From positions 3,348,001 to 3,412,000 of the forward strand of contig OZ234494.1 in assembly GCA_965153455.1 (NCBI GenBank): DNA of 64,000 nt, read 5' to 3'. The stretch is from Sphagnum compactum. Its lineage: Eukaryota. The stretch's first letter is position 1. The number at the start of each line of letters is the position of its first letter. The notes beneath the pieces were generated by a model. That model did not search any database and was not told the origin of the DNA. It worked only from the letters and a program-made list of their open reading frames with translations. The position numbers and the translations under genes are program-made. Of the stretch, positions 10,123-63,312 are shown in pieces.

Positions 10123-13100
10123 ATGGCGATGGAGGACAGGAAATTCTCTGGAGCAATGACGATGGAAGACAGGAATTATCGTTTGCGTTTAGCGTTGCCT
10201 GAGCTCTCGCAGCCCTTCCTCGGGCACTGGCTTTCTCCTCTCCACCAGGACTCGTACCTTAACAACAAGCTTGACAATGCGGGATTTGACATGGACCGGC
10301 AATTTTCTAGCAGCTGGTTTTCTTCAGACCCTGGAGATACTCCATCCTATGCGTCTCCTGTTGAGAGTGAAGAGAGGAGATGTCGTGAAGATGTCAAGAG
10401 CGATTGCAAGGTCCAAGTTCCTGAGATTAGGGTTTCTGTTTCAGAAGCTGAAGGCAGGAAGAGGAATGGCTATGTGTTTCACAGGTAAAAATACTTCTGG
10501 ATGTGCACACTCTGTTGTTCTGAATTTCCAATTTCCAAGGTCTCGGTGTCTGGATAGGATTCAAGGTCTGTAAATGCATGCTTCATTGCAAAAAAAGTCT
10601 GATAATTGAATGTATGCCTCAGATATACAGATGAGTTTCTGGAGTTACAAGGTGATGGGAATGATTGTGTTCCAACAGAGGCGGAAGCTCAGCATGAGAA
10701 GATGGAGCAGAAGAAACAGGTTGTGGAAATGTGGCTACATGTGGGAAAAATGCCTGCAGGACAGCCAAAGCTGCGGCCGTGGGAGCTTTCACATGAGCTG
10801 GAACAGATGCTCCAGCAGATGGTGTTGCCTCAGGCTCTTGATGAGGTGCAGCTTGGAAAGCATGAATTGCTGAGTGGAGGGGCTCTTTTGGATGATGCAG
10901 CAGGCAACAAGGAGTTGAGAATTCCATTACAGCCAAGCTCCAGAGCCATCCTGGTAAGTCTTTATTCTAGTGAACTTCTAACAGTCAAGAAGAGCACATG
11001 ACTATCCTGAAATTTTGCTGGTGTTCTGCCTTGAAATCTGACTTCTTTTTTCTGGATCAATGGTGCTCACAGAGTTCTTAGGTTTGGCTCATTGTAGGAA
11101 AGAGACCTTGTCAGAGATGCTATTTATGCTCTCCAAGGCATCCCAACAGCTGTTGCCCATCTAGAGCACCTGGCTACAACATTCTCTGAAACCTCAGCAG
11201 ATCGAACCTCTCATAGCCTTCAAACTTTATGGTTGCGTTCGTCAAGCACAACAGCACTTGGGAAAGTGCTTGCAGAGTTTGCACAGGCTGGGCACCTTGC
11301 CTGCCAGCTTGAGGCTTTTGTCAGTTTTTTCTTGGATGAGGATCAACGGGACAGTGCCTTTCTGTTTCAAAAGGACAGCTTGGAAAAAAAATCATCCAGA
11401 ACCATGAGGAGAAAGAGAAAACGGCAGAATTTCAGGTCCAATGTGGAGCTCCAGCCTAAGTATGAAACCATCCAAGGGAATCAACCTGTGGATGGAGGTG
11501 GGACCTCACCTCACTGTCTTGTGAATCAAGCTTTTGCAGGAGCAGTAAGAACCATCATGCAGGGGAAGCTAGCATCCTTGAACACATTGGGAGCATCAGT
11601 TGTGGATCGTAGGCAAAACACAGTTTCTGGATGGGCAGGTGGAGAGTTTGTGCAGGTTTCGGAAGACACGGATCCAGGTCTTGTATTTGGATTTGGGTTG
11701 GGCGATATAACACTCCTGGAGTTATACCTGCATACAAGCAGACTAAGAGAACAATTCCAAGCCCTTGCTGCAGTTTGTATGATTGATGGTGGTATTTACT
11801 CTACTGGCAAGTATGATAATAGAGCTGATCCAGAACATGCGACAGAGAGAAGACATGGAGATGAGGGAGCATTGCCACCAGCTGCTGGCAATCAATGTAT
11901 TACTGTGGATTGCGCACCTAAGCCCTTTCCACGAGGAGCAGATTTGTTGACATATTTGTACGAAAAGCTTTCGGTATGCATGAATTCCCAACCAGAGCTG
12001 CACCCATCTCCCATAAAACAACAGACAATGTAAACTTCTGCATCTAACATGACAGTAATGACAAATTGGGAACATGTATGCAGGAGTCTGATCCTATTTC
12101 TTTGGAGCTATTACGGTTTCTGTTTGAGCGGGCATGCAGACCATATGCAGGATTCATCCAACTGTGGCTGTATCATGCCACAGTAGAAGATCCTTTTGAA
12201 GAGTTCATAGTGAAGTGTGCAGAAGGCAATGGCATGCTGCTTTCACCTCCTTCCACTGCTTCTGGACTAGTCAGTAAACAGACTTGTATGTCAACTTTCC
12301 AGGTATGTATGGAGGGAATGTGATGGAATAGTATTAACACCGTAGCAGTCTTTTTCCTTCAATCAAGAGAAGACATGGAATCAGAGTCTTGTAGTGGATT
12401 GCAGGTTCGCACTGGTGTATCAGTGCCTAGTTTCCTGGAAGCTGTGTGCACACCTCTTCTGCGAGCTGGTCAGCAACTTCAGGTGCTTTCAAAACTGCTA
12501 GAGACTCACCAGTTTGCTCCGCATGTGGCCAACTTTCCCCTTTTGCCCACGGGTGGGTCCCAACATCCGTCTTCATGTTCCTCTACCATTGGTTCCGAGT
12601 TTCTCAACGATGAAAGCTCTGTTTTGACTCCAATTCTCCACTTTAGCAAGCTGAAGCTGCAGCATGTTGTACAGCAGCGAGAGATCCGAAGGCAAGTCAT
12701 GATGGAGCGGTATGACCGTCTTTTTGCTGATCTTGCCCAATCATGCCTGCCTGGGGAACAGGGTGAGAAAGACAGATTGTGGCAAATTGTGCAATTTCCG
12801 ACTGTGCCAAAGAACAAGCTTTCTCAGAAAATCAGTGACAAAACAGAACAAAGCATTGACATGCTTTTGGACAGACCACTGAAATCTAAACAGAAAATGG
12901 ATGCCAGGATTCTGTAAGTGAGCTCTATCAACTGATACTGTAAGGCAGTGTTGAGAAACAGTTGATGCAAAAAGAGTTGTTCAATGAGCATGCTTGCTGT
13001 GCACTGCATGAACTAATGCGCAGTCACAGACAGGGATGGAGTTGGAACAATTGTATTAGAAAGGAAGGACTGCTCATTTTTTACTACTGTCTTGGAAAAC

Positions 13101-25994: not shown

Positions 25995-26987
25995 GTAGTG
26001 ATGATGTTTCCAGAGATGTTGGAGCACAAGAATCAGGCCCTGGGATACATGGCACAAGGTTTGACAAGAATTTGGTACATTCTTGTGGCACATTTAGTAC
26101 TTTTAGACTGTTTGTTTGAACTTGCCATGCCCGGATGAGGCTTAATCCAGGATCTTTCTTGGATGTGGAATGCTCCCTTTGTCAATAAACAGTTTACAGT
26201 CCTGTGTGTCTTGTATATAAGATTTGAGTTCAATCTTTTGTTGGTTCTCTCCTGATCCATACTCATATTCAGTATTGCGACTGCATCTTGTGTTGACTTT
26301 ACGTTACAGCCTTTTGATCCATCATCTGGGGTTGAAAGAGTATGTTTTAGTAATCAGGATTGGGGCTGGCTATATCTCTCAACTGAGTCACCAGCAAAAT
26401 GCTCCAGCACTTGAACTCTTCACGTTCATCATCTTCTTTGAGCAACATGAGTGCAAACTAGATTGATGTGCAATAATTGTGAGCGAACAATACGGCAAAT
26501 CTGCCATCAACAGTCAGAAGATTCATAATGCTATGGAAATGTAACTACAACTTCCTTTGTCATCTGCAATGTCAGAAGTATAGAATAATGGCCTATATTG
26601 AGAATGTCTGGGATTTGAGGTACTTATCCCCAGGCCAGTAGCCCTGTGGATGCTCTCCAGTAGCCCCATGGATATAGAGAGCTTGTAACCATAATGCCCT
26701 CAATGTGGAGCCTTGCTCTAAACATAAAGAACCAGGGTTGATTTTCCCTTTGTTAGAAACCGGAATAGCCTGCCCATCATTGCCAGGGCATTATGACAAT
26801 ATGGAATGTACATTTCCAATTCCAATGTGTGTAATGCACACCTATCAGAAATAGAAAAATACAGAAACTGCACTGAGACATCTGTGAGGAAGAGAATAGA
26901 AACAAAAATGCAGAATTGATCTTTACGTGCTAGTACCCAAAGCACAATTTACTGAGGACCTGCTGGGCCTGAGTGCACTACCAAAAT

Positions 26988-28559
26988 TCACCGGTTGAAG
27001 GAATGCACAAATCCAAGCAATGCGTTAACCTCACGATCTTCTGACTGATACTTTACAACTGAGCTACTGTTAGCTGGGAAGAAGAGAATTGTGGGAAAAC
27101 TCTCCAGCTGCAAATATTGCTTTGCATAAGGCTTATTATCACCATCTGCCTGGAACTTGGCAACCTGTTGCCGCCCCCACCCTCACCCCCATGCAAAAAA
27201 TCCACGGACTTTAGACTTATTTATAACAAGTGTGGGTTGAAGACTATCAAATTTCAAAGGTTTTTCAAAAGGGGTTTGTTTCCATGCTATGGATTTTACA
27301 CGTATGCCATTCAGCACTATGACAATTGCGTATTATATAAGCATGGATTTTCGGAGGGCCTTAAGAGGTCGTAATGCTCTTGTACCATAGTGCCATGCCA
27401 TGTATCATAGACATTGTAATTAGTGTTGCTAATTAAAAACCTAATCCTGAATTTTAAAATGGAATGAAATATTTTACTCACGAAGACATCTGAGTGTTGA
27501 AGACGTTGTGCAACCATGTTGAATGCTGGTTCCATGGCCTGTATACACAAATTTTACACAAACCCAACTCCCCAAATCCCTTCAAACTCCACACCCATTA
27601 TTGTCTCCAATTCTAAATCCTGTTTACAGGGTTGGGACTTTGAACCCTTTCAGTTGCAGGATCAGAACTCACTTTCTTAACCTCTAGAGAATGCGTGCAG
27701 CTGGCAGCTTCTATATCAAAGCTCATAATTCTATGTGACTCTTAGAATTCTCAAATTTCAGAGTTGGGTTCAGAACAATCTTCATGGTAATTCTCCTTTT
27801 CTTCTTTTGGAAAGGTAGTAGTCCTGGGGCATGCATGTGCACACAGATACCTAGGTGGCTTGTGTTTTCATCTATTGAAAAAGGAAAACTGAAAATTGTT
27901 GTAAGGGGAAGAAGACAGTGAACCTGACAGTAGGTGCACCAGGGTGCATACAGTACCACCAACCAGGGTTTGGATCTATGGCTTGTGGCCAAGGCGTCAA
28001 TCTCATCCAGATTCAGCTGCATCACACGGCTACTGCCAAACAAATCCTCATTTCTAGAGTGCTGCTGCTGCTGCTGCTGCTGTTGCGGTGAGCTTGTATG
28101 CTGGGTGGAGTCATTAGCATTGCCTACCGTGTCAAAATTTTGTGAAGAATTGCCATGATCCTCATACGTATGATGCTCATGCAGTTGATAATCCTCATTA
28201 TGCAATTGTTGACTTGGTTGTTGTTGCTCGTAATGGCTATGGACATGATGGGCAGCAGGACTTGAGTGGTGGTGGCCATCATGATGATGATCATGGTGTG
28301 CAGCATGAGCAGCATGAGAGCCTGAGTGATGTGAGTGACTTGGCTCACCGTTATCATCAGAAAACAAAAAAGCTTCATCCCGATTGTCATGATGTGTCGA
28401 GTGATGGTGGTGATGCTCCTCCTCCTCATCCAGATGTCTGTGATGATTATGAGCTGCATTATTATAGTCATCTGAATCGTCATACAAGTTGTCATCATAA
28501 TCAGGTCTTTCTTCTGATGGATATGGGTTTCCATACTCATCAAAGTCCCACACTGACAT
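26988..28559 (-). CDS. His/Asp/Gln-rich N-terminus fused to an APS-reductase-type thioredoxin domain (289 aa, 3 exons)
   Basis: Exons 28559-27924, 27538-27482 and 27164-26988 join with phase-0 GT-AG introns. They give DLFGSSRVMQLNLDEIDAL..KPWLVVLYAPWCTYCQ|AMEPAFNMVAQRLQHSDVF|VAKFQADGDNKPYAKQYLQLESFPTILFFP..VKYQSEDREVNALLGFV, colinear with the APR C-terminal domain. Confidence 0.85.
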
Positions 28560-28774
28560 CTTTCCCCACCACCACCCTCCTCCTTCTCCTCCTCCTCCTC
28601 CTCCTCTTCTTCGTCTTCACACCACCTCCAAGACAATGTTGCATCTTGAAGTTCCAAACGTTGTCTCCACCTGATGACAATCACAACAGAATACAATACA
28701 CCGCACCATTCCAGAACCCTCCTTGATGTTGCTGGTCTATGGATATGGAAATGTATATGGATATGCCAGATAGG

Positions 28775-28776
<2 letters not shown>

Positions 28777-28840
<64 letters not shown>
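28777..28840. repeat. Compound (CT)n(CA)n microsatellite upstream of the thioredoxin-domain gene
   Basis: Direct reading. Confidence 0.95.
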
Positions 28841-31800
28841 ATCCCCTTTGACCTTTGGAGGTCCTATATTGCATTGCACCTCTTCACTCCTCACTCCCCC
28901 ACCCCCCTCACAAAAGATCTACCCTACCATCTTTCTGCAGCAGCACTGTTCAGATCTGATGGATGAAAGCTCTAGTAGATACAGACCATTTGTAATCAGA
29001 GTTCCAGTGATCAAGCAGGTGCCCATGATCAAATTACTAAGATCATCTCATGTCTTACTCAATACCATACGCTGGAGAAAACATTGTTCATGGTAAATGA
29101 AAGAGTCCAAGGATGATGGGATGGGTGTTGAGCCATCCCTGTGATTTTTGTTGGGGCCTTGAATGCATGCATGTCCCAATTGTATTCCCTTGCGGCTGGT
29201 GAGGAAGGAGGCACACATGTTCATTAATAGATCATTCAAAGTAGTTGTGTGTTTGATGTCTTTTTGGGTAGTATAAGCATCATTGACATGCATCATGCCA
29301 AATGTGGGAACCTTGAGGATGCGTGGTGAACACATTTGATGGGATGCTTATGAACAACAATGTGGTCTCTTGGATGATTATGCTTGAGATTGCCATGCAT
29401 GGGGAATCATGAAGAAATTATGCTTCATTGTGTGTGACAAAAGCTCTAAGAGATAGGTTTAGAATATTGGAACGTTACTGGGAAGATTACTGGGAAGATA
29501 GGTTGTGTAGTATGATGTCAAGGAAACAATTTTTTATCACCATAGCAAGAAGTCAATCATTTCATTTGGGCTCATAAGCATTCAGGTTTCGTAGTTCTCC
29601 ACTCTATGTTTTCATAAATTAGCAAAGTTGTACCACAAGTCTACTATAGTTATGAGGTAATCACATATCAAGGGATGATGCCAATGACACCTTCTTGATC
29701 ATGGTCCTTGTTCTCCCAAGGATTATATCGGTCATGGCACCAAGTTCTTGCTTTCTCAATGATGCACCAATAAGCTTCGTGGTGCAATTGGATTTTAACA
29801 ACATATTTGACAATTTGTTGACTGAAAGTCATAATGAATTGTTAGAAGCCAATACATTCAATTTCATTGTGAAAACAAAAGGTTTGTTGGATGTGGAATT
29901 AAGCCCTCACATAATCATTGAATGTCACTTCATCATTCAGCTTTTGTTGTTTATTGTGATCCCACACATTCCTTATTTGTTTGTTCTCCTTATGCTAGAC
30001 ATCAATGCAATAGCATGCTTTCACACAATGTTGATTTGGTCATTTGTTTGCACCACTTGTCTATGGTTGCAACCAATGTTTCAATTTTAGATGTAATTTG
30101 CTACAAACGCAATGTAGTCCTTCCTTCAAGGTACATGGCAAATGACATTGTTCTTTGATATGATACATTACTTGCACATGATTGTTGCATTATGTATCTC
30201 AACATGAATGTAATTCATGTGTAGTGTTTTGGAAGGGTGGAGAAGATGATTATTATAAAAAATTGAAAGTATAATGACATAATAAATTCCATGACTTTAG
30301 TCTAAGGTTGCAAGTGGCAAGGCCTTCGCATCTTGTACTACTTGGACATGATGTTTATAGTAATGAATATTCACAATAAATTTTTTACACAAAATGTGGT
30401 GAAAAAAATGCAAAAAGATATAAAATGTGATTTGGAGTTAGAAAAATTTGACCATATTTATGACTTTCGTAATGACCTATCAACATTTCCTTATATATTT
30501 GAAGGGCATTTAAAATCCTTAATATTCCCTCTTGATGTTGGAGGTCATATTATGTTTATGGACATGCGCTTACATTTTGAAATGGCTTGTCATTATTTTT
30601 TTGTGCAACAAATAGGATCTTGGCCATTTAGATATGGAAAACAAAGGCTAACATGTCATTATGCATGTTAATGCTCTTCAATGAGGCGTTACCAAATTTT
30701 TGCACCTACCTTTGGCTATCACCTTGTACATGCACATTATTCTATTATCACTTGTAATCAATCTAACCTCATGTGATGGTTGTTGCCCCACCTTAACTAT
30801 GCATTCATTGATGCTATGTTTGAATGCAAAGTGCTTCTAATTATTTTGCCTAACTCATACTGCATGCACATATAAGGGGAAAATATCCTCCATGAAAATT
30901 GGTCAAAATGGGGTGTTGTAATGCAAGAATTGTGTTTGAAAGGAGGTATGTAGAAAAGCACAAGGAGGGCACTACCTCATTTCATTTGTGTTTTGTTGGA
31001 TATGTGCAAGAAGATGCATCAACCACTCTATGCATGTGGGAAATGGATTTTATTTTTTTTAAATTCATGTCATGATGTCACATGACTTGCCCTGTGTTAG
31101 ACATAATTGATGAATTTGATACATGTGGTTATGTGAATACCCCTTGAATGTGTTGCATAAAAAGTATGAACAAGGTTGAATGAAAGGGTATGTGCACAAC
31201 ATGATCAAAAGTCATAAAATAAGGAATGTTTGAAGTTGAGGAATAGAACTTTTAAGCATGTGACAAGTACATGTAGGATTCTCATATCACAAACTCATAA
31301 AGTTTGAGATGCAAAAGAGGACATTATGCTGAAAAATATATTGGGAGGAGTCACAAAAAGAATTGAGCTAGGCCTATTATTTGGAATTTGGATCACTACT
31401 ATGTCCTAATTAAGACATGTTTTGCTAAACTATAATTCAATATTTTTCGAAGTTCAAATGTTTGTGTTATGGGATATGTTGGTTGTTCATATTTTTCTAT
31501 TTTTGACATGTCGTCCATACCATTTATATTTTATAGATGGTTGAAAATTGAAACCATTCATTCTTCAAATAAGTCTTGAATTATTTTTTTTGTTGTACAT
31601 CATAAAATGACAAACAAACAAAATTGATAATTAAATGACATTTAATCATCTGATTGAATATTTGAATTGTGTTCCCAATGTGTTTATTTATTTTTAAAAA
31701 TCCATGGCCTTTTACAACATTTATGTTTTCATTTGCAATTATGCCTCAAATGTAATTCATATTGGAAATATTCAATAAGTGGGCATAACTTTGAAATGTA

Positions 31801-56186: not shown

Positions 56187-58820
56187 TGGCGCCCCAAACT
56201 TAGATGTAGGTTGATTAACCGTCGTTGGTGTCAGCTGCGAAGCCAGCGTTCAGCCGACGCACTCGCAGGCAATCAGCTGCTCCCCAACGCCTCGCTGGAA
56301 CGCGACGAAAAGGCGCTGATTGATCTGGTAGATGGTCTATCCTCGGGGTCGGTTGTGTTTGTCAGCGTGACGGATGGTGATCTTGCGGATCATGATGCGC
56401 GTTTCGGGGGCGGAGTCACCGAACGTCTCCCAAGCCATGACGATCAAGCGCAGACCATTGCGACGATACTTGTCGTCGTCGTCGGAGTGCTTCTTAGCAG
56501 CGGCGGCCTTGGCAGCGACCAAACTCTTTCCCGCCACACGATTGATGAAGGTGGGCTGCAGTGGGTGTGTAATCACAGAGTCCAGGCAGGCGTCCTGGCC
56601 GGCGCAGAACATCGTGAGCAGGACGTCAGCGGGACGATCCTTGCGGCTGGCGATTAGGCCGGTCTTCTCGAGGCGGGACTTGAGACCCGCTTCATTGGCG
56701 ATGATGTTCTGCACGTACATCATGCGGTCGTTGCGGCGAATGGTGTGCGGCCCGTGCCTGCAGGTCACGGCGTGGTCGCCGTATGGGTCTATCACGTGCA
56801 GACGGCACTTCGGGCAGCGGATGGTTGGGCATGTCTTCAAGCCCAGCCGAAACTGGACGACACGCTCGAAGTGGCACGGTGGTAGGGTGAGGCCGAGATA
56901 GGGCAGCGGCAGGGCGGTGAGGTACCCCGACGCCCAGCCAGCGTGCAAAGACTGGAGGCGCCCCTTGTTGCGCATGTTGCTGTCGGCGAACAGGCGATCG
57001 TACTCGGCCTCGTTCATCAGGTGCATGATCTTGGATTGGATGCCAGCGCCTGACGCCTCAGGGTTGAACTGGAGGATCTTGTTCAGGGCGGCGAGGTTGC
57101 TCGGGTTGACGCGTTGATGCAGGCGCTCAATCTCGGCGCTCAGGTCGTCGGTCGGGTCGGCGTCGTTGCGGCCGAGCAGTTTGTTGACCAGGCTGGCGGT
57201 GCCCAGGCGCGAGCTGACGTAGGCGGCATCGGGGTGGTCCTCGACAATGCCAATGGCCAACCTGGCCTTGCCGATCGGCAGGTGGGCCTGCTTCCATGCA
57301 AGCGGGTCGTCTATTTGGGCGGAGAGTATGGCCTTGATTGCCATCTGCCAGTTTTGGTCGACGGTCTGCAGCTCCTTGCGGATATAGTCGCGACGCATGG
57401 TGCGGAGCAGGTGGTTCATCTTGGACGAATTGTCGCTGCCACGCAGGATGATCATTTCACTCTGCGGGTCGTTGATATACGGGATGCGGTCGAGGATCGA
57501 CTGGATGTTGTCGATCTTGGCTTTGATGAAGTCCTGCACGTACAGGTCGGGGCCGATCGGGCAGCCGAGCGTCTTCTGGCCGTTGTCGAATGTCTTGAAC
57601 TTAATCGACGCCGGGAACAAGCATCGCAGGTCGATCGCGTCGGTGTCGCTGGTGATCGACGACTTGTGAAGCTGCAGTGGAGGCTGTGCTCAGGTTCGTC
57701 GTCGACGAACATCTGGACGGCACGACTTGTGTCATTGAGCGTGCCGACGATCTTGCCATCATCGAGGTACCACGCGTTCAGCTGCAGGTCGGGGATGATG
57801 TTGTGCACCTTGAAGAGGAAGGCGTGTAGGGTCAGCGAAAACAAGAGGCCGGCCAGCGGGTCGCCCTGGTCGACGCTGGATGTTCGCGAGAACACGTGAT
57901 CCTCGTAATACAGGCGGCCCGCCTGTGTGTAGACGGCGACGACAAACCGCGCCATGCCCGACAGCTTGTTGACGACCGAATCAATGGCGGTTTGGCGTAA
58001 GCAGCGCCCGGAGGCGTTCTGCAGGTCCAGGTCGACCTTGGCATGCGTCTCACGGTCGATGGTGTCACGGAACATGTTGGTGGCGTGCACGATCGCTTCG
58101 GCCCCGCCGACGACACCGGCGCCGAGCTGGAATGGGTTTAGCAACTCGGCAATTGCAACGCACTCCTTGTCCAGTAGGCACTTGCCAACGATGCGTCGGT
58201 CCAGCAACATTAGGTTCAGCTGGTGGATGTCGTACTCGATCGGGTTGGCGCGTAGCGCCTCTTGGGACGCTTCCTTGATGAGTAGGATGGTCCGCCCGCC
58301 GTTAAAGTACGGGCCGATGGCCTCCGGCCAGGCGCCTTGCGCCAGCACGTTGACGAAGCGGCTGTACGCCCGCTGAAAAACGTCCGCCACGTTGGTCGAG
58401 GGAGCGGCGGCGCAATACTTATAGAACTCGGCGCGGTTGCCGTCCATGCCCGCCGCGGTGCTCTTCGGGATGCTGTTGACGATGTGCATGATTTGGCCCT
58501 TCTTGAAGTTGTGGCTGGTCGGCAGGTCGACCAGCGGTTGCATCTCGGGCAGGTCGGCTTGCTGCAATTTGGACAGCAGCTTGCCGAGCGTGTGCTCGCT
58601 CAACTCCGCCATGTCGCACGACATTAGGGCACGCGTGACGCAGCCCGCTTTGCCACAATGCACCAGCTTCTTTGCGCGGTTGGCATTTTGAATGATCAGT
58701 TCGTCGCCCTCGAGGCGATACAACGAGGCGAAGACGCGGGTCAAACGGACTTCGACCATCGCCAACGCCCATTTGGCGGCTTGACCGCCAGGCTGAAACC
58801 ATTGGACGCAGCGGTCGACG
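56187..58820 (-). mobile_element. 5'-truncated non-LTR retrotransposon, CRE-like (RT + CCHC + restriction-like endonuclease), inactivated
   Basis: RT motifs PFQLGAGVVGGAEAIVH, DLQNA, QGDPLAGLLF, AWYLDDG. Zinc finger CPKC..DPYGDHAVTC, RLE RPADV..LD..AKKH..AWETFG, terminal QRLFVAFQRG. 1-bp frameshift near 57665 and premature TAG at 56337-56339. Direct repeat ATGTGTTTTT at 56177-56186 and 58821-58830. Confidence 0.88.
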
Positions 58821-59644
58821 ATGTGTTTTTGGGCTTGGATTCTTATTTGTTATAATTGAATTAATTTTTTGAATCACCAAATGTCATTTGGTTTTGTTTT
58901 GTGCAAAAATTATTTTTCTTTTTGTTGAGCTTTGTTTGATGCATTGTGTGATGAGCCTACTGTTTTGAATTATTATTATGTTGTTGGATTTGGAATTGTA
59001 ACAACATGCACTTTGGAGTTGATACATGTGTTATTTAAAGTGATTTGTGTTATTTGGCTTATGTATGTGTGGATAGAGACAATTGTAAGCATTCATATGA
59101 CAGCACACAATAACTATCTCTCAAAGTATGAGCAAATAATTCTATAGCCAATTCTTGAAGACAAATTGATAGGACTATAAAAACACACTTGTGGAACAAG
59201 TATAATCACATTGAAGTTGATCATGGATGTTCACATGTTTAAAGGAATGAAGTTTACCTTTAATGTGTGCTTTTAACAAAAATGGATAAGGTGTGCACCA
59301 ATGTTGTTTATGATATATCCTTGGATAAGGATGTATAATCTTTTCAAATTCCCATTAAGTAAAGGTATGTTAACATTCAGCAATTTTCCATCATGTTCAA
59401 ATCTTGGTATACAAAATTGAGTTTTCAAATAGATGGGTAGGGTCAAGGTACTCCTGTATATGAGAAAGCATATGCTTGCCCAACAATAGTAGACAATGGC
59501 AGAGAGGCCCAGATGCTGAGTGAAAGAAACAAGAAACCATGCGAGGTGCTAATGAATGCCCATATGATGATATCTCGACTTATGATGGAGGATGCTTTTG
59601 CACTTTTCTGCTATTATGAACTACAGACACCAATGCTCGTGGAT

Positions 59645-60920: not shown

Positions 60921-63312
60921 ATGTCCACAATAACTGTGCCTCAGTATCTCAATTTGCAAGAAGACTGTTCTGCGCTCCGTCAAGCATTCAGAGGTATGCA
61001 TTACTCACAATTTTGTGTAGTGTTTAGTCATAAGTCTCCTCTCCCGCTTCAAAAGGAGGAGGATCAGAATAATTTTGCCGGAAGATTTTTAGATAAAAAA
61101 GAGTTTCAGGTCTTCCTGCTGAGATAAGCTGTTACTGTGGAGTAAGCAATCTAGAGGCTTCCATTACTTCTGACTCTGTGCAAATGAGAGGAAGAAGTGC
61201 ACATTTTATGTCTTTTACACGGGTGTCAGATTTTCCATGTGGAATGGAAGTAAATAGCACCAAAAACACGCTCACAGCTTTTAGCATTCTAACCCCATGT
61301 TTTGTTTCGGAGGGACTGCAGGGATAGGTTGTGATGAGAAAAAAGTGATTTCAATATTAGGTCACCGCACACAAGCCCAGCGCTTAGCAATAGCTGATGC
61401 TTACCAAAGGCAGTTTGGTGAGAACTTATCTAAGCGTCTCAAGTCGGAACTCCATAGCAACCTTGAGGTGTGTTTCTTCGCCCGGTGCAGAATGAGCTGA
61501 TATCACCAATTGAAGGGAACCCCAGTTTTTCAGAATAACAATCCTTTTGGGCATGCTGATCTATTCCTTGATTTGTGGCATTTCTGAGACTCAACAAGAG
61601 TGGTTTGATTGTCCAATGAAAGATACTTAAGCAATCACTAGTTTACTTTCTTGAGTGGTCAGAGAAAAGGTCACTTTTTTGGCCACCATAGAAAGCTGCA
61701 AGCAATGGTGATCAAGTGTTTTTTTCACCTTCTGTTCTACCCCTTCTCTGTTCATGTCAATCGACATGCTGATAGAGGCCACAGATAGGATAGTTGCATA
61801 GAATGGTTCATTTATTACCATGAATGCACTGATCAGCTAAATCTGGAACATGTGGACAATGCAGAGAGCAGTGCTTCTTTGGATGATGAATGCAGCAGAC
61901 AGAGATGCAGTTCTTTTATATGATTCAATGTCAGGGCTGGGCACCAAAGACACTGCCTTGATTGGAATCGTGTGCACTCGCACTCCCTCGCAGTTATACA
62001 TTATCAAACAAGCTTATTATAACCTTTACCATAGGACACTAGAGCATGCCATTGATGCGGACACTAGTGGCAACTATCGAAAGGTGAGGTCATGTTACTC
62101 AAGTTATCATGCCACTTTTGTTTTGAATTTTGTAGTGAACCTTGGACTTGTCTATCACTTGGAAGTAGGCAGGAAAGTTGAACTACAGCTTCTGGTTTGT
62201 CATTTGAGGAGGGATCTTTCAATTTTTTTCCTGTCATGCCAGTGGCTGGCAGGTGTAATAATTTTTGTGTGAACTATTCTAGCTAATCTGAGAGAGAATG
62301 ATAGTCGCAGTTGTATCTCTAACTACCAGAAATTATGTTTACAGCTCCTATTGGAAATTGTCAAAGGCAACCGTTCAGAAAGCTTGGGGGTAGACCGACA
62401 ACTAGCACTAGCTGACGCCCATGCACTATACAAGGCGGGTGAGGGCCGATGGGGCACAAATGAAGACACTTTCATTCATATTTTGGCAACTCGTAGTGCT
62501 GCCCACCTGACCACTGTGTCACAATACTACCTGCAAACATTTGGGCACTCACTTGAGAAGGTGAGTTTCACAAGTTCTCCTAGTGTAAGTTCACAACAGC
62601 ATGAGGATTCTAGCCACTTTTGCTGTTCCAAAACTAAAAAGCATTTTGTCTTGAATATGTGCAGGCAATCAAGAAAGAAACATCGGGACATTTCGAGGAT
62701 GCATTACTGGCTGTTGTGCAATCCACTTGCTACCCTGCAAAATTTTTTGCCCAGGTACTGGCTTCTTCTACTCAAAAGGTGGATGATGTTAGCACATCAG
62801 TTTGACACATGTCAAGAGAGAAGGAGATATATCCAGGATTATGGTTTGAGTCATTCTAGAAAAACCCAAGGGTGAATGAGTTCATAAGCTGACATGACAT
62901 CTAGTATAAGCACAATTCCTTGTCGCCAGTTACTTCATCTATTTCTGATAATTAGAGGGTGTAAAGAAAGTTTGGGGTGTTCCACATACCTTTGCTGGTT
63001 TTCAAGGTCTTCCTTGCAGTCTCATAATTCGTGTGTTCTCACCTAGGCAATTTCTGAAGCATCAGCTATTCAGTGGCTTTTGATCATTAACTCTTGCATT
63101 TGGTGTTGCAGGAGCTCTACCGATCAATGAAGGGTCTAGGAACAGACAACAGCTCATTAATCCGGGTTGTAACTACTCGAGCAGAAATTGACATGCAGTA
63201 TATAAAGGCTGAATTTGCAAATATGTACAACAAGACCCTGGAGCATATGGTTGCTGGTGATACATCTGGGAATTACAGGCAATTCCTTCTTACCCTTGTG
63301 GGTGGTGCTTAG
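60921..63312 (+). CDS. Annexin (6 exons)
   Basis: MSTITVP..DCSALRQAFRGIGCDEKKVISILGHR, GLGTKDTALI, GRWGTNEDTFI, KGLGTDNSSLIRVVTTRAEID, DTSGNY. Exons 60921-60993, 61322-61467, 61865-62083, 62345-62560, 62665-62754, 63112-63312. Confidence 0.95.

Follow-up and report, generated by a model that had tools for sequence, protein, structure and literature searches.

We analysed a window of 64,000 nucleotides from Sphagnum compactum (contig OZ234494.1, positions 3,348,001 to 3,412,000) and describe here one of its genes, located between positions 26,988 and 28,559 of the window. The gene codes for a redox domain of the type that forms the C-terminal part of the plant APS reductase (APR), here standing alone behind a histidine-rich acidic tail. 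The original prediction, made from the letters of the DNA, had placed the gene at the correct coordinates but should have stated that the coding strand is the minus strand. It had also claimed an intact open reading frame of three exons. Slicing the window confirmed the exons, the frame and the splice sites: all three exons are in phase 0, their borders are GT..AG and together they give a coding sequence of 870 nt for a protein of 289 amino acids (Table 1).

Exon 1 spans the start codon, the whole tail and the beginning of the redox domain up to ...WCTYCQ, and it is intact in four other Sphagnum loci (L001-L004, see below). Exon 2 is spliced identically in annotated proteins of Sphagnum and of the moss Ceratodon purpureus. 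Exon 3 carries the cis-proline loop SFPT, the loop QSE and the C-terminal helix, which ends with ...REVNALLGFVHSFNR directly before the stop codon; this ending is common to the gene models of S. balticum, S. magellanicum and Ceratodon. We accept the splicing of introns 1 and 2 because the sites are canonical, the match to the APR domain runs on uninterrupted and annotated proteins of both moss genera are spliced in the same way. The start codon is well supported since the frame upstream of the ATG is open for 57 nt without a further ATG and since a Met-(Ser)-(Met)-Trp start is found in all clades of the family. Directly before the ATG lies a run rich in GAG/GGA (28560-28620), and adjacent (CT)n and (CA)n microsatellites lie some 220-280 nt upstream of the ATG, at 28777-28842. 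Together these probably represent the 5′ untranslated region (UTR) or the promoter.

Table 1. Features of the redoxin gene and other open frames of the window with Pfam matches (aa, amino acids).
Feature	Positions	Strand	Remarks
Exon 1 (212 codons)	27924..28559	minus	ATG at 28559, donor CAG/GTTCAC
Conserved N-terminal motif MSVWDFDEYGNPYPSEERPDYD (residues 1-22)	28494..28559	minus	
Tail, predicted disordered, residues 1-171	28047..28559	minus	35 His, 34 Asp+Glu, 0 Lys, 12 HxH motifs
Poly-Gln run Q159-Q166 (8 Gln)	28062..28085	minus	CAG/CAA repeat
First part of redox domain, D172-Q212	27924..28046	minus	beta1, alpha1, beta2, active site
CxxC active site C208-T-Y-C211	27927..27938	minus	
Intron 1	27539..27923	minus	GT..AG; several database proteins read through
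Exon 2 (19 codons, AMEPAFNMVAQRLQHSDVF)	27482..27538	minus	helix alpha2
Intron 2	27165..27481	minus	GT..AG
Exon 3 (58 codons and stop)	26988..27164	minus	beta3 to alpha4; stop at 26988-26990
Alternative GT donor in exon 3	27028..27029	minus	after ...SEDRE; used in public 4-exon models
3′UTR intron	26770..26981	minus	donor 7 nt past stop codon; spliced contig
"Exon 4" of public 334-aa model	26596..26769	minus	most likely 3′UTR
Cytidylyltransferase-like	1606-2079	plus	Pfam, 48.2 bits
GCP_N_terminal (gamma-tubulin complex)	11098-12033	plus	Pfam, 29.2 bits, just below cut-off of 29.4
Annexin	62273-62875	plus	Pfam, 53.7 bits

Residues 172-289 make up a complete APR-type thioredoxin-fold domain. The APR-like motifs that had been quoted for it, PWLVVLYAPWCTYCQ-AME, VAKFQADGD, LQLESFPTILFFP and KYQSEDREV, are all present, as is the W-C-x-x-C redox motif at the N-terminus of helix alpha2 (WCTYC in the window protein). 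Among the family members the active site reads CTYC or CTHC in eight Sphagnum models and CRFC in two Ceratodon models and nine unnamed proteins. The domain is 53-63% identical to the C-domains of seed-plant APRs. The NCBIfam model of plant APR, TIGR00424 (464 positions), is matched by the Ceratodon orthologue P0275 over positions 346-462 with 130.6 bits and by the Sphagnum model P0002 over positions 325-452 with 117 bits. Neither reaches the cut-off of 553.2 bits, and a genuine APR (P0013) scores 805.5 bits. The match is confined to the C-terminal part of the model, so the PAPS-reductase-like catalytic domain (PF01507), which carries the Fe-S cluster, is absent from both proteins. Two PDI models stay below their cut-offs (TIGR01130, 58.4 bits with a cut-off of 344; TIGR01126, 62.5 bits with a cut-off of 107.2), and so does the classical thioredoxin model TIGR01068 with 30.9 bits for P0275 and 40.7 bits for P0002 (cut-off 96.8). 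The Pfam domain Thioredoxin (PF00085) is annotated on both full-length orthologues; single exons scanned alone gave 16.1 and 12.7 bits, below the cut-off of 23.5. When the sequences of the Protein Data Bank were searched, the redox domain of Arabidopsis APR1 (AtAPR1, entry 5YRY) came out on top with 113.9 bits, and the next protein was TXNDC5 with 60.9 bits.

An AlphaFold2 model was made for the Ceratodon orthologue from an alignment of 14 rows. Its mean predicted local distance difference test score (pLDDT) is 55.3, because residues 1-169, with the exception of a few N-terminal ones, are below 50; the block means for residues 170-288 are 72-91. In this latter part the elements follow in the order beta1-alpha1-beta2-alpha2-beta3-alpha3-beta4-beta5-alpha4, the same order as given for the AtAPR1 redox domain in its description (PMC6827007). 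Foldseek ranked 5YRY first (TM-score 0.87 on the target, root mean square deviation 2.1 Å, 47% identity), followed by domains of PDI, ERdj5, ERp46 and QSOX with 18-29% identity. From the ESM Atlas we obtained generic thioredoxin clusters; the best one (148 aa, dominated by Streptophyta, score 0.93) shares 169 features, short of the benchmark of 170, and we take it as a lead only.

For the phylogeny, APR rows that lacked the active-site pattern or whose C-terminal piece fell outside 105-135 aa were dropped first. The 126 domain pieces were then reduced to 116 distinct ones and the APR rows were thinned at 88% identity, giving a tree of 53 rows: four of the family, 43 APRs and six PDI-type outgroup domains, with neither a bryophyte APR nor an APRL protein among them. 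The family forms one clade (98/96) inside the APR-type domains. It adjoins an APR from Selaginella (P0176; 90/78); both branches are long and the bootstrap is not fully settled, so that this grouping of long branches may be an artefact. The domain had been predicted to belong to APR, with the APRL and PDI families as the competing assignments. The profile scores (130.6 against 62.5 bits), the first rank of 5YRY and the branch of 100/99 that splits family and APRs from the PDI-type domains all show that it is of the APR type and not of the PDI type.

According to the AtAPR1 study (PMC6827007), the redox domain of that enzyme binds glutathione with a dissociation constant of 2.84 µM, its redox potential is glutaredoxin-like at -188 mV, and the groove for glutathione is formed by the three loops WCPFC, SFP and PSE. 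The corresponding loops of the window protein are WCTYC, SFP and QSE; other mosses have the CRFC site. The moss proteins thus differ from AtAPR1 in the active site (CTYC, CTHC or CRFC versus CPFC) and in the last loop (QSE versus PSE). Phe-Pro is kept in all members seen, preceded by Ser, Asn or His. By analogy with AtAPR1, a glutathione-dependent dithiol-disulfide function is plausible but not assured.

The reductase half had been predicted to be missing from the locus, and this is indeed the case. Three full-length APRs, P0013 (Amborella), P0008 (Cynara) and P0009, were used as tblastn queries against the whole window, and no exons of the catalytic domain came up. The three thioredoxin exons were matched, besides two matches at chance level (E = 0.75 and 4.2), and APR residues 1-340 had no match anywhere in the 64 kb. 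Nor is there a reductase-like long open frame between 28560 and 40000, and among the metatranscriptome contigs none links exon 1 to anything upstream.

Also the claim that the protein has no transmembrane segment and no signal peptide is supported, and a transit peptide, likewise claimed to be absent, appears unlikely. The Kyte-Doolittle hydropathy (mean over 19 residues) has its maximum at 0.88 in the window protein and at 0.74 in the Ceratodon protein, in both cases inside the thioredoxin domain, and by this measure no transmembrane segment or signal peptide is evident. For the transit peptide we used the composition of the N-terminus as a heuristic. The first 25 residues contain eight acidic and one basic residue; the first 40 residues of the three genuine APRs contain 2-3 acidic residues and 10-14 Ser+Thr. 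With so strongly acidic a composition the N-terminus does not resemble a plastid transit peptide, and import into the plastid appears unlikely.

The tail in front of the domain had been described, from a hand count, as containing 35 His, many Asp and Glu, poly-Gln and no Lys. Our recount of residues 1-175 agrees exactly (35 His, 21 Asp, 14 Glu, 16 Gln, 0 Lys). The tails of all ten members examined are similar in kind: they are 152-176 aa long and contain 20-35 His (12-21%), 20-34 Asp+Glu, at most one Lys and 6-13 HxH motifs, with a Gly content ranging from 6 to 35. Between the window protein and Ceratodon only 47 of 166 tail residues are identical (28%), compared with 81 of 117 in the domain (69%). 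Hence, the composition of the tail is conserved where its sequence is not. In the N-terminal motif, 10 of 22 residues are identical between the window protein and Ceratodon, and W4, E8, G10 and Y21 are invariant in all ten aligned members. The middle of the tail aligns poorly and the domain start is nearly invariant. The length of the poly-Gln repeat differs among Sphagnum species. The counts and the low pLDDT of the Ceratodon model thus bear out a tail which is His-rich, acidic, free of lysine and predicted to be disordered.

The net charge calculated from the composition of this Sphagnum tail is -26.8 at pH 7.5, -12.4 at pH 6.5 and +2.8 at pH 5.5; for the Ceratodon tail the values are -8.5, +3.1 and +15.1. 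This charge shift and the HxH motifs suggest that the tail could bind metal ions and/or act as a pH-dependent charge switch. Metal binding and condensate formation had been put forward in the original prediction as possible properties and are putative here too. Striking is the near-total absence of lysine over about 160 residues in three clades. Avoidance of ubiquitination is one reading of it, which is speculative.

We find that the gene belongs to a conserved moss family which is annotated but unnamed. The closest named protein in a first search was BDL97_02G007300 of S. fallax with 90% identity, and the 90% cluster of this protein contains models from S. fallax, S. jensenii, S. balticum, S. 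tenellum, S. compactum, S. magellanicum and S. troendelagicum. In all, public gene models exist for eight Sphagnum species, and orthologues are annotated also in two assemblies of Ceratodon purpureus, KC19_11G165100 (P0275, 288 aa) and P0294. P0275 has the same layout, with the start MSMWDYNEEGDPYP, a His/Gly-rich spacer and a complete domain ending in ...REVDALLGFVHAFE. Sphagnum and Ceratodon belong to two deeply separated moss classes. A third clade (P0004-P0007, P0298-P0302) has the N-terminus MWEYDEYGNPYPAEERPDY, which is nearer to that of Sphagnum than to that of Ceratodon, a Pro-rich insert PPAAPMAVPLPPQ and the CRFC site; its database proteins all read through intron 1.

Using the tail of an unnamed relative as query, we obtained 11 matches among 183 candidates, ten with the tail architecture and one APR. 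A word search directed at the domain gave 262 matches; among the 120 listed, 117 carry PF01507 and P0002 alone has the tail, and the Ceratodon orthologue is not listed there. A HMMER search with P0002 (4270 matches at E <= 0.001) is dominated by long proteins with several thioredoxin domains, whose scores are summed over 3-10 stretches, and no new family member was found among the best 150 of the 4270. Five short proteins (P0192, P0214, P0011, P0058 and P0071) were considered as members and rejected, as they contain remnants of the reductase domain or are cut-off APR copies. The named members come from Sphagnum and Ceratodon only, and the searches, not being exhaustive, do not delimit the range outside the mosses.

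All public names are generic (hypothetical, unnamed, "Thioredoxin domain-containing protein"). Searches of full texts, leaving aside subscription-only papers and supplements, turned up no paper that describes an APR-type redoxin standing alone or any of these locus tags. The passages of a 2024 review on sulfur evolution that bear on the subject list APR, APR-B and algal fusions but no free C-domain protein (PMC11350084). The original prediction spoke of an undescribed, domain-shuffled redoxin. It was right in that we found no description and that an APR-type domain stands alone here; however, the locus already has public gene models under generic names, and it is a member of a conserved moss family and not a local domain shuffle.

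To look at selection within Sphagnum we used four genomic loci from a metagenome scan (four confirmed among 258 pattern matches), which are all Sphagnum orthologues. Three of them differ from one another little or not at all, and L004 resembles S. fallax. The frame of three exons, the stop codon and the splice sites are kept in all four. Length differences in exon 1 among Sphagnum (+9, +6, +3, -30 and -15 nt) are all multiples of three. As the ratio of non-synonymous to synonymous rates (dN/dS) has too few changes to decide, we took the divergence of the introns (26-29 differences in about 700 sites) as a neutral yardstick. Relative to the intron rate, non-synonymous change amounts to 0.26-0.54 in the thioredoxin domain (p = 0.015-0.18), to 0.32-0.64 in the tail (p = 0.013-0.23) and to 0.93-1.22 in the frame of "exon 4" (p = 0.6-1). 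Domain and tail thus change below the intron rate and the domain is 69% identical to that of Ceratodon, which contradicts the neutral evolution that had been considered as a possible outcome.

We lean, with moderate confidence, towards the view that this real and conserved moss gene encodes a non-plastid, glutathione-dependent dithiol oxidoreductase carried on a disordered tail that responds to metal or pH. The domain would take electrons from glutathione and reduce disulfides or glutathionylated cysteines on other proteins, in the manner of a glutaredoxin. Such a reduction is the most likely activity because the protein has retained the WCxxC dithiol in a thioredoxin fold, the cis-proline loop and the greater part of the glutathione groove of AtAPR1. 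The protein would work in the cytosol or the nucleus, outside the plastid pathway in which the domain originated; this location is the most likely one since a transit peptide, a signal peptide and a membrane segment appear to be lacking. The tail would bind divalent metal ions and/or change its charge when histidines are protonated, and its charge or metal state could tune where and when the redox domain acts. A short docking motif may lie in the conserved residues 1-22.

Several points speak against this proposal. The structure model is that of the Ceratodon orthologue and not of the spliced window protein. Of the three residues beside the active cysteines, two are not those of AtAPR1 (Pro to Thr or Arg, Phe to Tyr or His), Pro96 of AtAPR1 is replaced by Gln and the SFP loop may begin with Ser, Asn or His; therefore glutathione binding could be altered. 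The location derives from the heuristic of N-terminal composition only. Within Sphagnum dN/dS is underpowered, with 2-3 synonymous changes per partition, and the pairwise values are 0.26-0.80 for the domain and 0.35-1.09 for the tail. Six of the ten named public models have a four-exon end without helix alpha4. At the RNA level, there is no spliced contig across intron 1 or 2 among the metatranscriptome contigs, several of these contigs, which may represent DNA or pre-mRNA, read through introns without splicing, and the sole splice joint seen has a depth of 2.5 with 30 nt on its shorter side. A poly-A run with the same species label (X24) gave no reads, but only about 12% of the run was sampled, which makes it no test.

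It is possible, if doubtful, that the protein is more specifically a cytosolic redox switch of a hitherto undescribed design, which would make it a moss-specific re-use of a module of sulfate assimilation. Here acidification of the cytosol or the binding of Zn, Ni or Cu ions would flip the charge of the Lys-free His/Asp/Glu polyampholyte tail to which the glutathione-driven APR-type domain is attached. The tail would then collapse, condense or dock via the N-terminal motif, and metal or pH stress would be coupled to thiol-disulfide control.

We consider it unlikely that the protein mainly handles metals, with the tail as the working part of a Zn, Ni or Cu buffer, store or chaperone. The CxxC would then bind metal or keep metal and thiols reduced and not act as a general disulfide reductase. 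Stretches rich in histidine and CxxC pairs are classic metal ligands, and the number of His and HxH motifs in all ten tails fits this idea. One unnamed relative was automatically named "cation transport ATPase", which reflects its His-rich resemblance. However, the domain is better conserved than the tail, it has kept the complete redox-domain fold of APR and, for the most part, the loops of the glutathione groove, and no metal-binding domain family was matched in the Pfam scans of the exons or the NCBIfam scans of the orthologues.

Quite unlikely in our view is that a four-exon isoform of 334 aa is the main product, in which case the loss of alpha4 would suggest a different or a regulatory, non-catalytic role. 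This isoform is represented by the six Sphagnum models mentioned above: P0283, P0291 (338 aa), P0286 (314 aa), P0002, P0292 (321 aa) and P0288 (334 aa). P0288, the model from S. compactum, is identical to the exact four-exon reading of the window. All swap helix alpha4 for an extension of 57 residues; towards its end the S. tenellum model diverges once more. Moreover, its use in a spliced contig shows the acceptor at 26769 to be real: record 7 of the metatranscriptome contigs X4 joins the donor at 26981 to this acceptor, with GT..AG on the minus strand. The donor in this sole spliced contig lies, however, past the stop codon, so that exon 4 is 3′UTR there. The sequence of the 26981 donor is identical in all five Sphagnum sequences. 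Exon 4 has an in-frame stop in L004 and no counterpart in Ceratodon, and its frame changes like an intron. Furthermore, the remaining four of the ten models (S. balticum, S. magellanicum and both from Ceratodon) end with the conserved helix, which is confidently modelled at residues 277-287 of the Ceratodon structure. Considering the stop in L004 and the intron-like rate, the post-stop donor of the spliced contig and the replacement of alpha4, exon 4 is probably 3′UTR. The isoform made from the internal donor may exist as a minor form. The extension in the six public Sphagnum models is thus probably non-coding and their annotations likely need correcting.

Other contigs touch the same region. 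The identical contigs X1 and X2 (1329 nt, depth 14.6) run unspliced over 26400-27274, extend 452 nt beyond 26400 and are also unspliced across exon 2. They may represent carried-over DNA, pre-mRNA or a transcript of the plus strand that overlaps the 3′UTR. Among the X4 contigs, ends are found at 27164 and starts at 27480, near the borders of exon 3 and exon 2, which is suggestive only.

It had also been proposed that the protein donates electrons in trans to a reductase without such a domain, which in mosses would be APR-B of sulfate assimilation. The domain does derive from the electron-donor module of APR, and an APR-B without a thioredoxin domain occurs in a moss, as stated in the review cited above (PMC11350084). 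Yet the reduction of sulfate takes place in the plastids of photosynthetic eukaryotes, according to another source (PMC2275785), and the acidic N-terminus (8 of 25 residues) is unlike the Ser/Thr-rich, acid-poor N-termini of APRs, so that plastid import is unlikely. The Pfam matches in the window also include no sulfur-metabolism gene. Thus, we regard this role as very unlikely. Hardly tenable, and already largely refuted, is the view that the gene is an artefact of prediction or a lineage-specific duplicate that decays or has no function: the empty poly-A sample, the single spliced contig of low depth and some pairwise dN/dS values near 1 would fit, but Sphagnum and Ceratodon have the architecture and the open frame in common and a domain identity of 69%, all five Sphagnum genomic sequences are in frame with in-frame indels only, and non-synonymous change lies below the intron rate while the neighbouring frame of exon 4 is neutral.

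As to the surroundings of the gene, we scanned 14 long open reading frames of the window. Three gave the Pfam matches listed in Table 1, none of them a sulfur-metabolism or redox gene, and the remaining 11 had no Pfam match. At 56337-58849 on the minus strand two long open frames of 450 and 465 aa overlap each other, with more open frames on the opposite strand and likewise without a Pfam match. This unusually long open stretch in an AT-rich region may be a low-complexity or repeat-derived gene.

How does the moss protein compare with known systems? With the C-domain of plant APR (AtAPR1 residues 353-461, 5YRY) it shares the fold, the order of the elements, the position of WCxxC, the cis-proline loop and the C-terminal helix. 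It differs from APR in having no fused PAPS-reductase-like catalytic domain and no transit-peptide-like N-terminus, and in its His-rich disordered tail, which APRs do not have. The thioredoxin domains of PDI, ERp46, P5, ERdj5 and QSOX share the thioredoxin fold and CxxC and are the next-best matches in sequence and structure. They are more distant (at most 60.9 versus 113.9 bits, 18-29% identity, the 100/99 branch between), and the PDI family is multidomain with a signal peptide, whereas the moss protein has a single thioredoxin domain and no signal peptide. Arabidopsis APRL4-7 have a thioredoxin-like domain which resembles the APR C-domain and lacks the reductase part; they carry a membrane anchor as well as a signal peptide, and no His-rich tail. 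By this description the moss protein would be set apart from them through its His-rich tail and the absence of a hydrophobic segment (maximum hydropathy 0.88). Selenoprotein P combines a thioredoxin-fold redox domain (UxxC/CxxC) with His-rich segments, which bind both metals and polyanions. It is an extracellular, selenium-transporting animal protein, and the likeness is an analogy of design only between unrelated lineages.

The redox domain of APR is a textbook thioredoxin fold acting as a glutaredoxin and, to our knowledge, known only within the fused enzyme. The free-standing version in distant mosses would mean that the module has been re-used outside the plastid sulfate pathway, and it offers a natural stand-alone form for biochemistry. 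The tail, with its kept composition and drifting sequence, clearly exemplifies how selection can act on the composition of a disordered region. For the public record, six of the ten models, including the one for this locus, probably have a wrong C-terminus which truncates the fold. Mosses, and Sphagnum especially, live with acidity and metal loads, and a redoxin linked to metal or pH would therefore be ecologically relevant for them.

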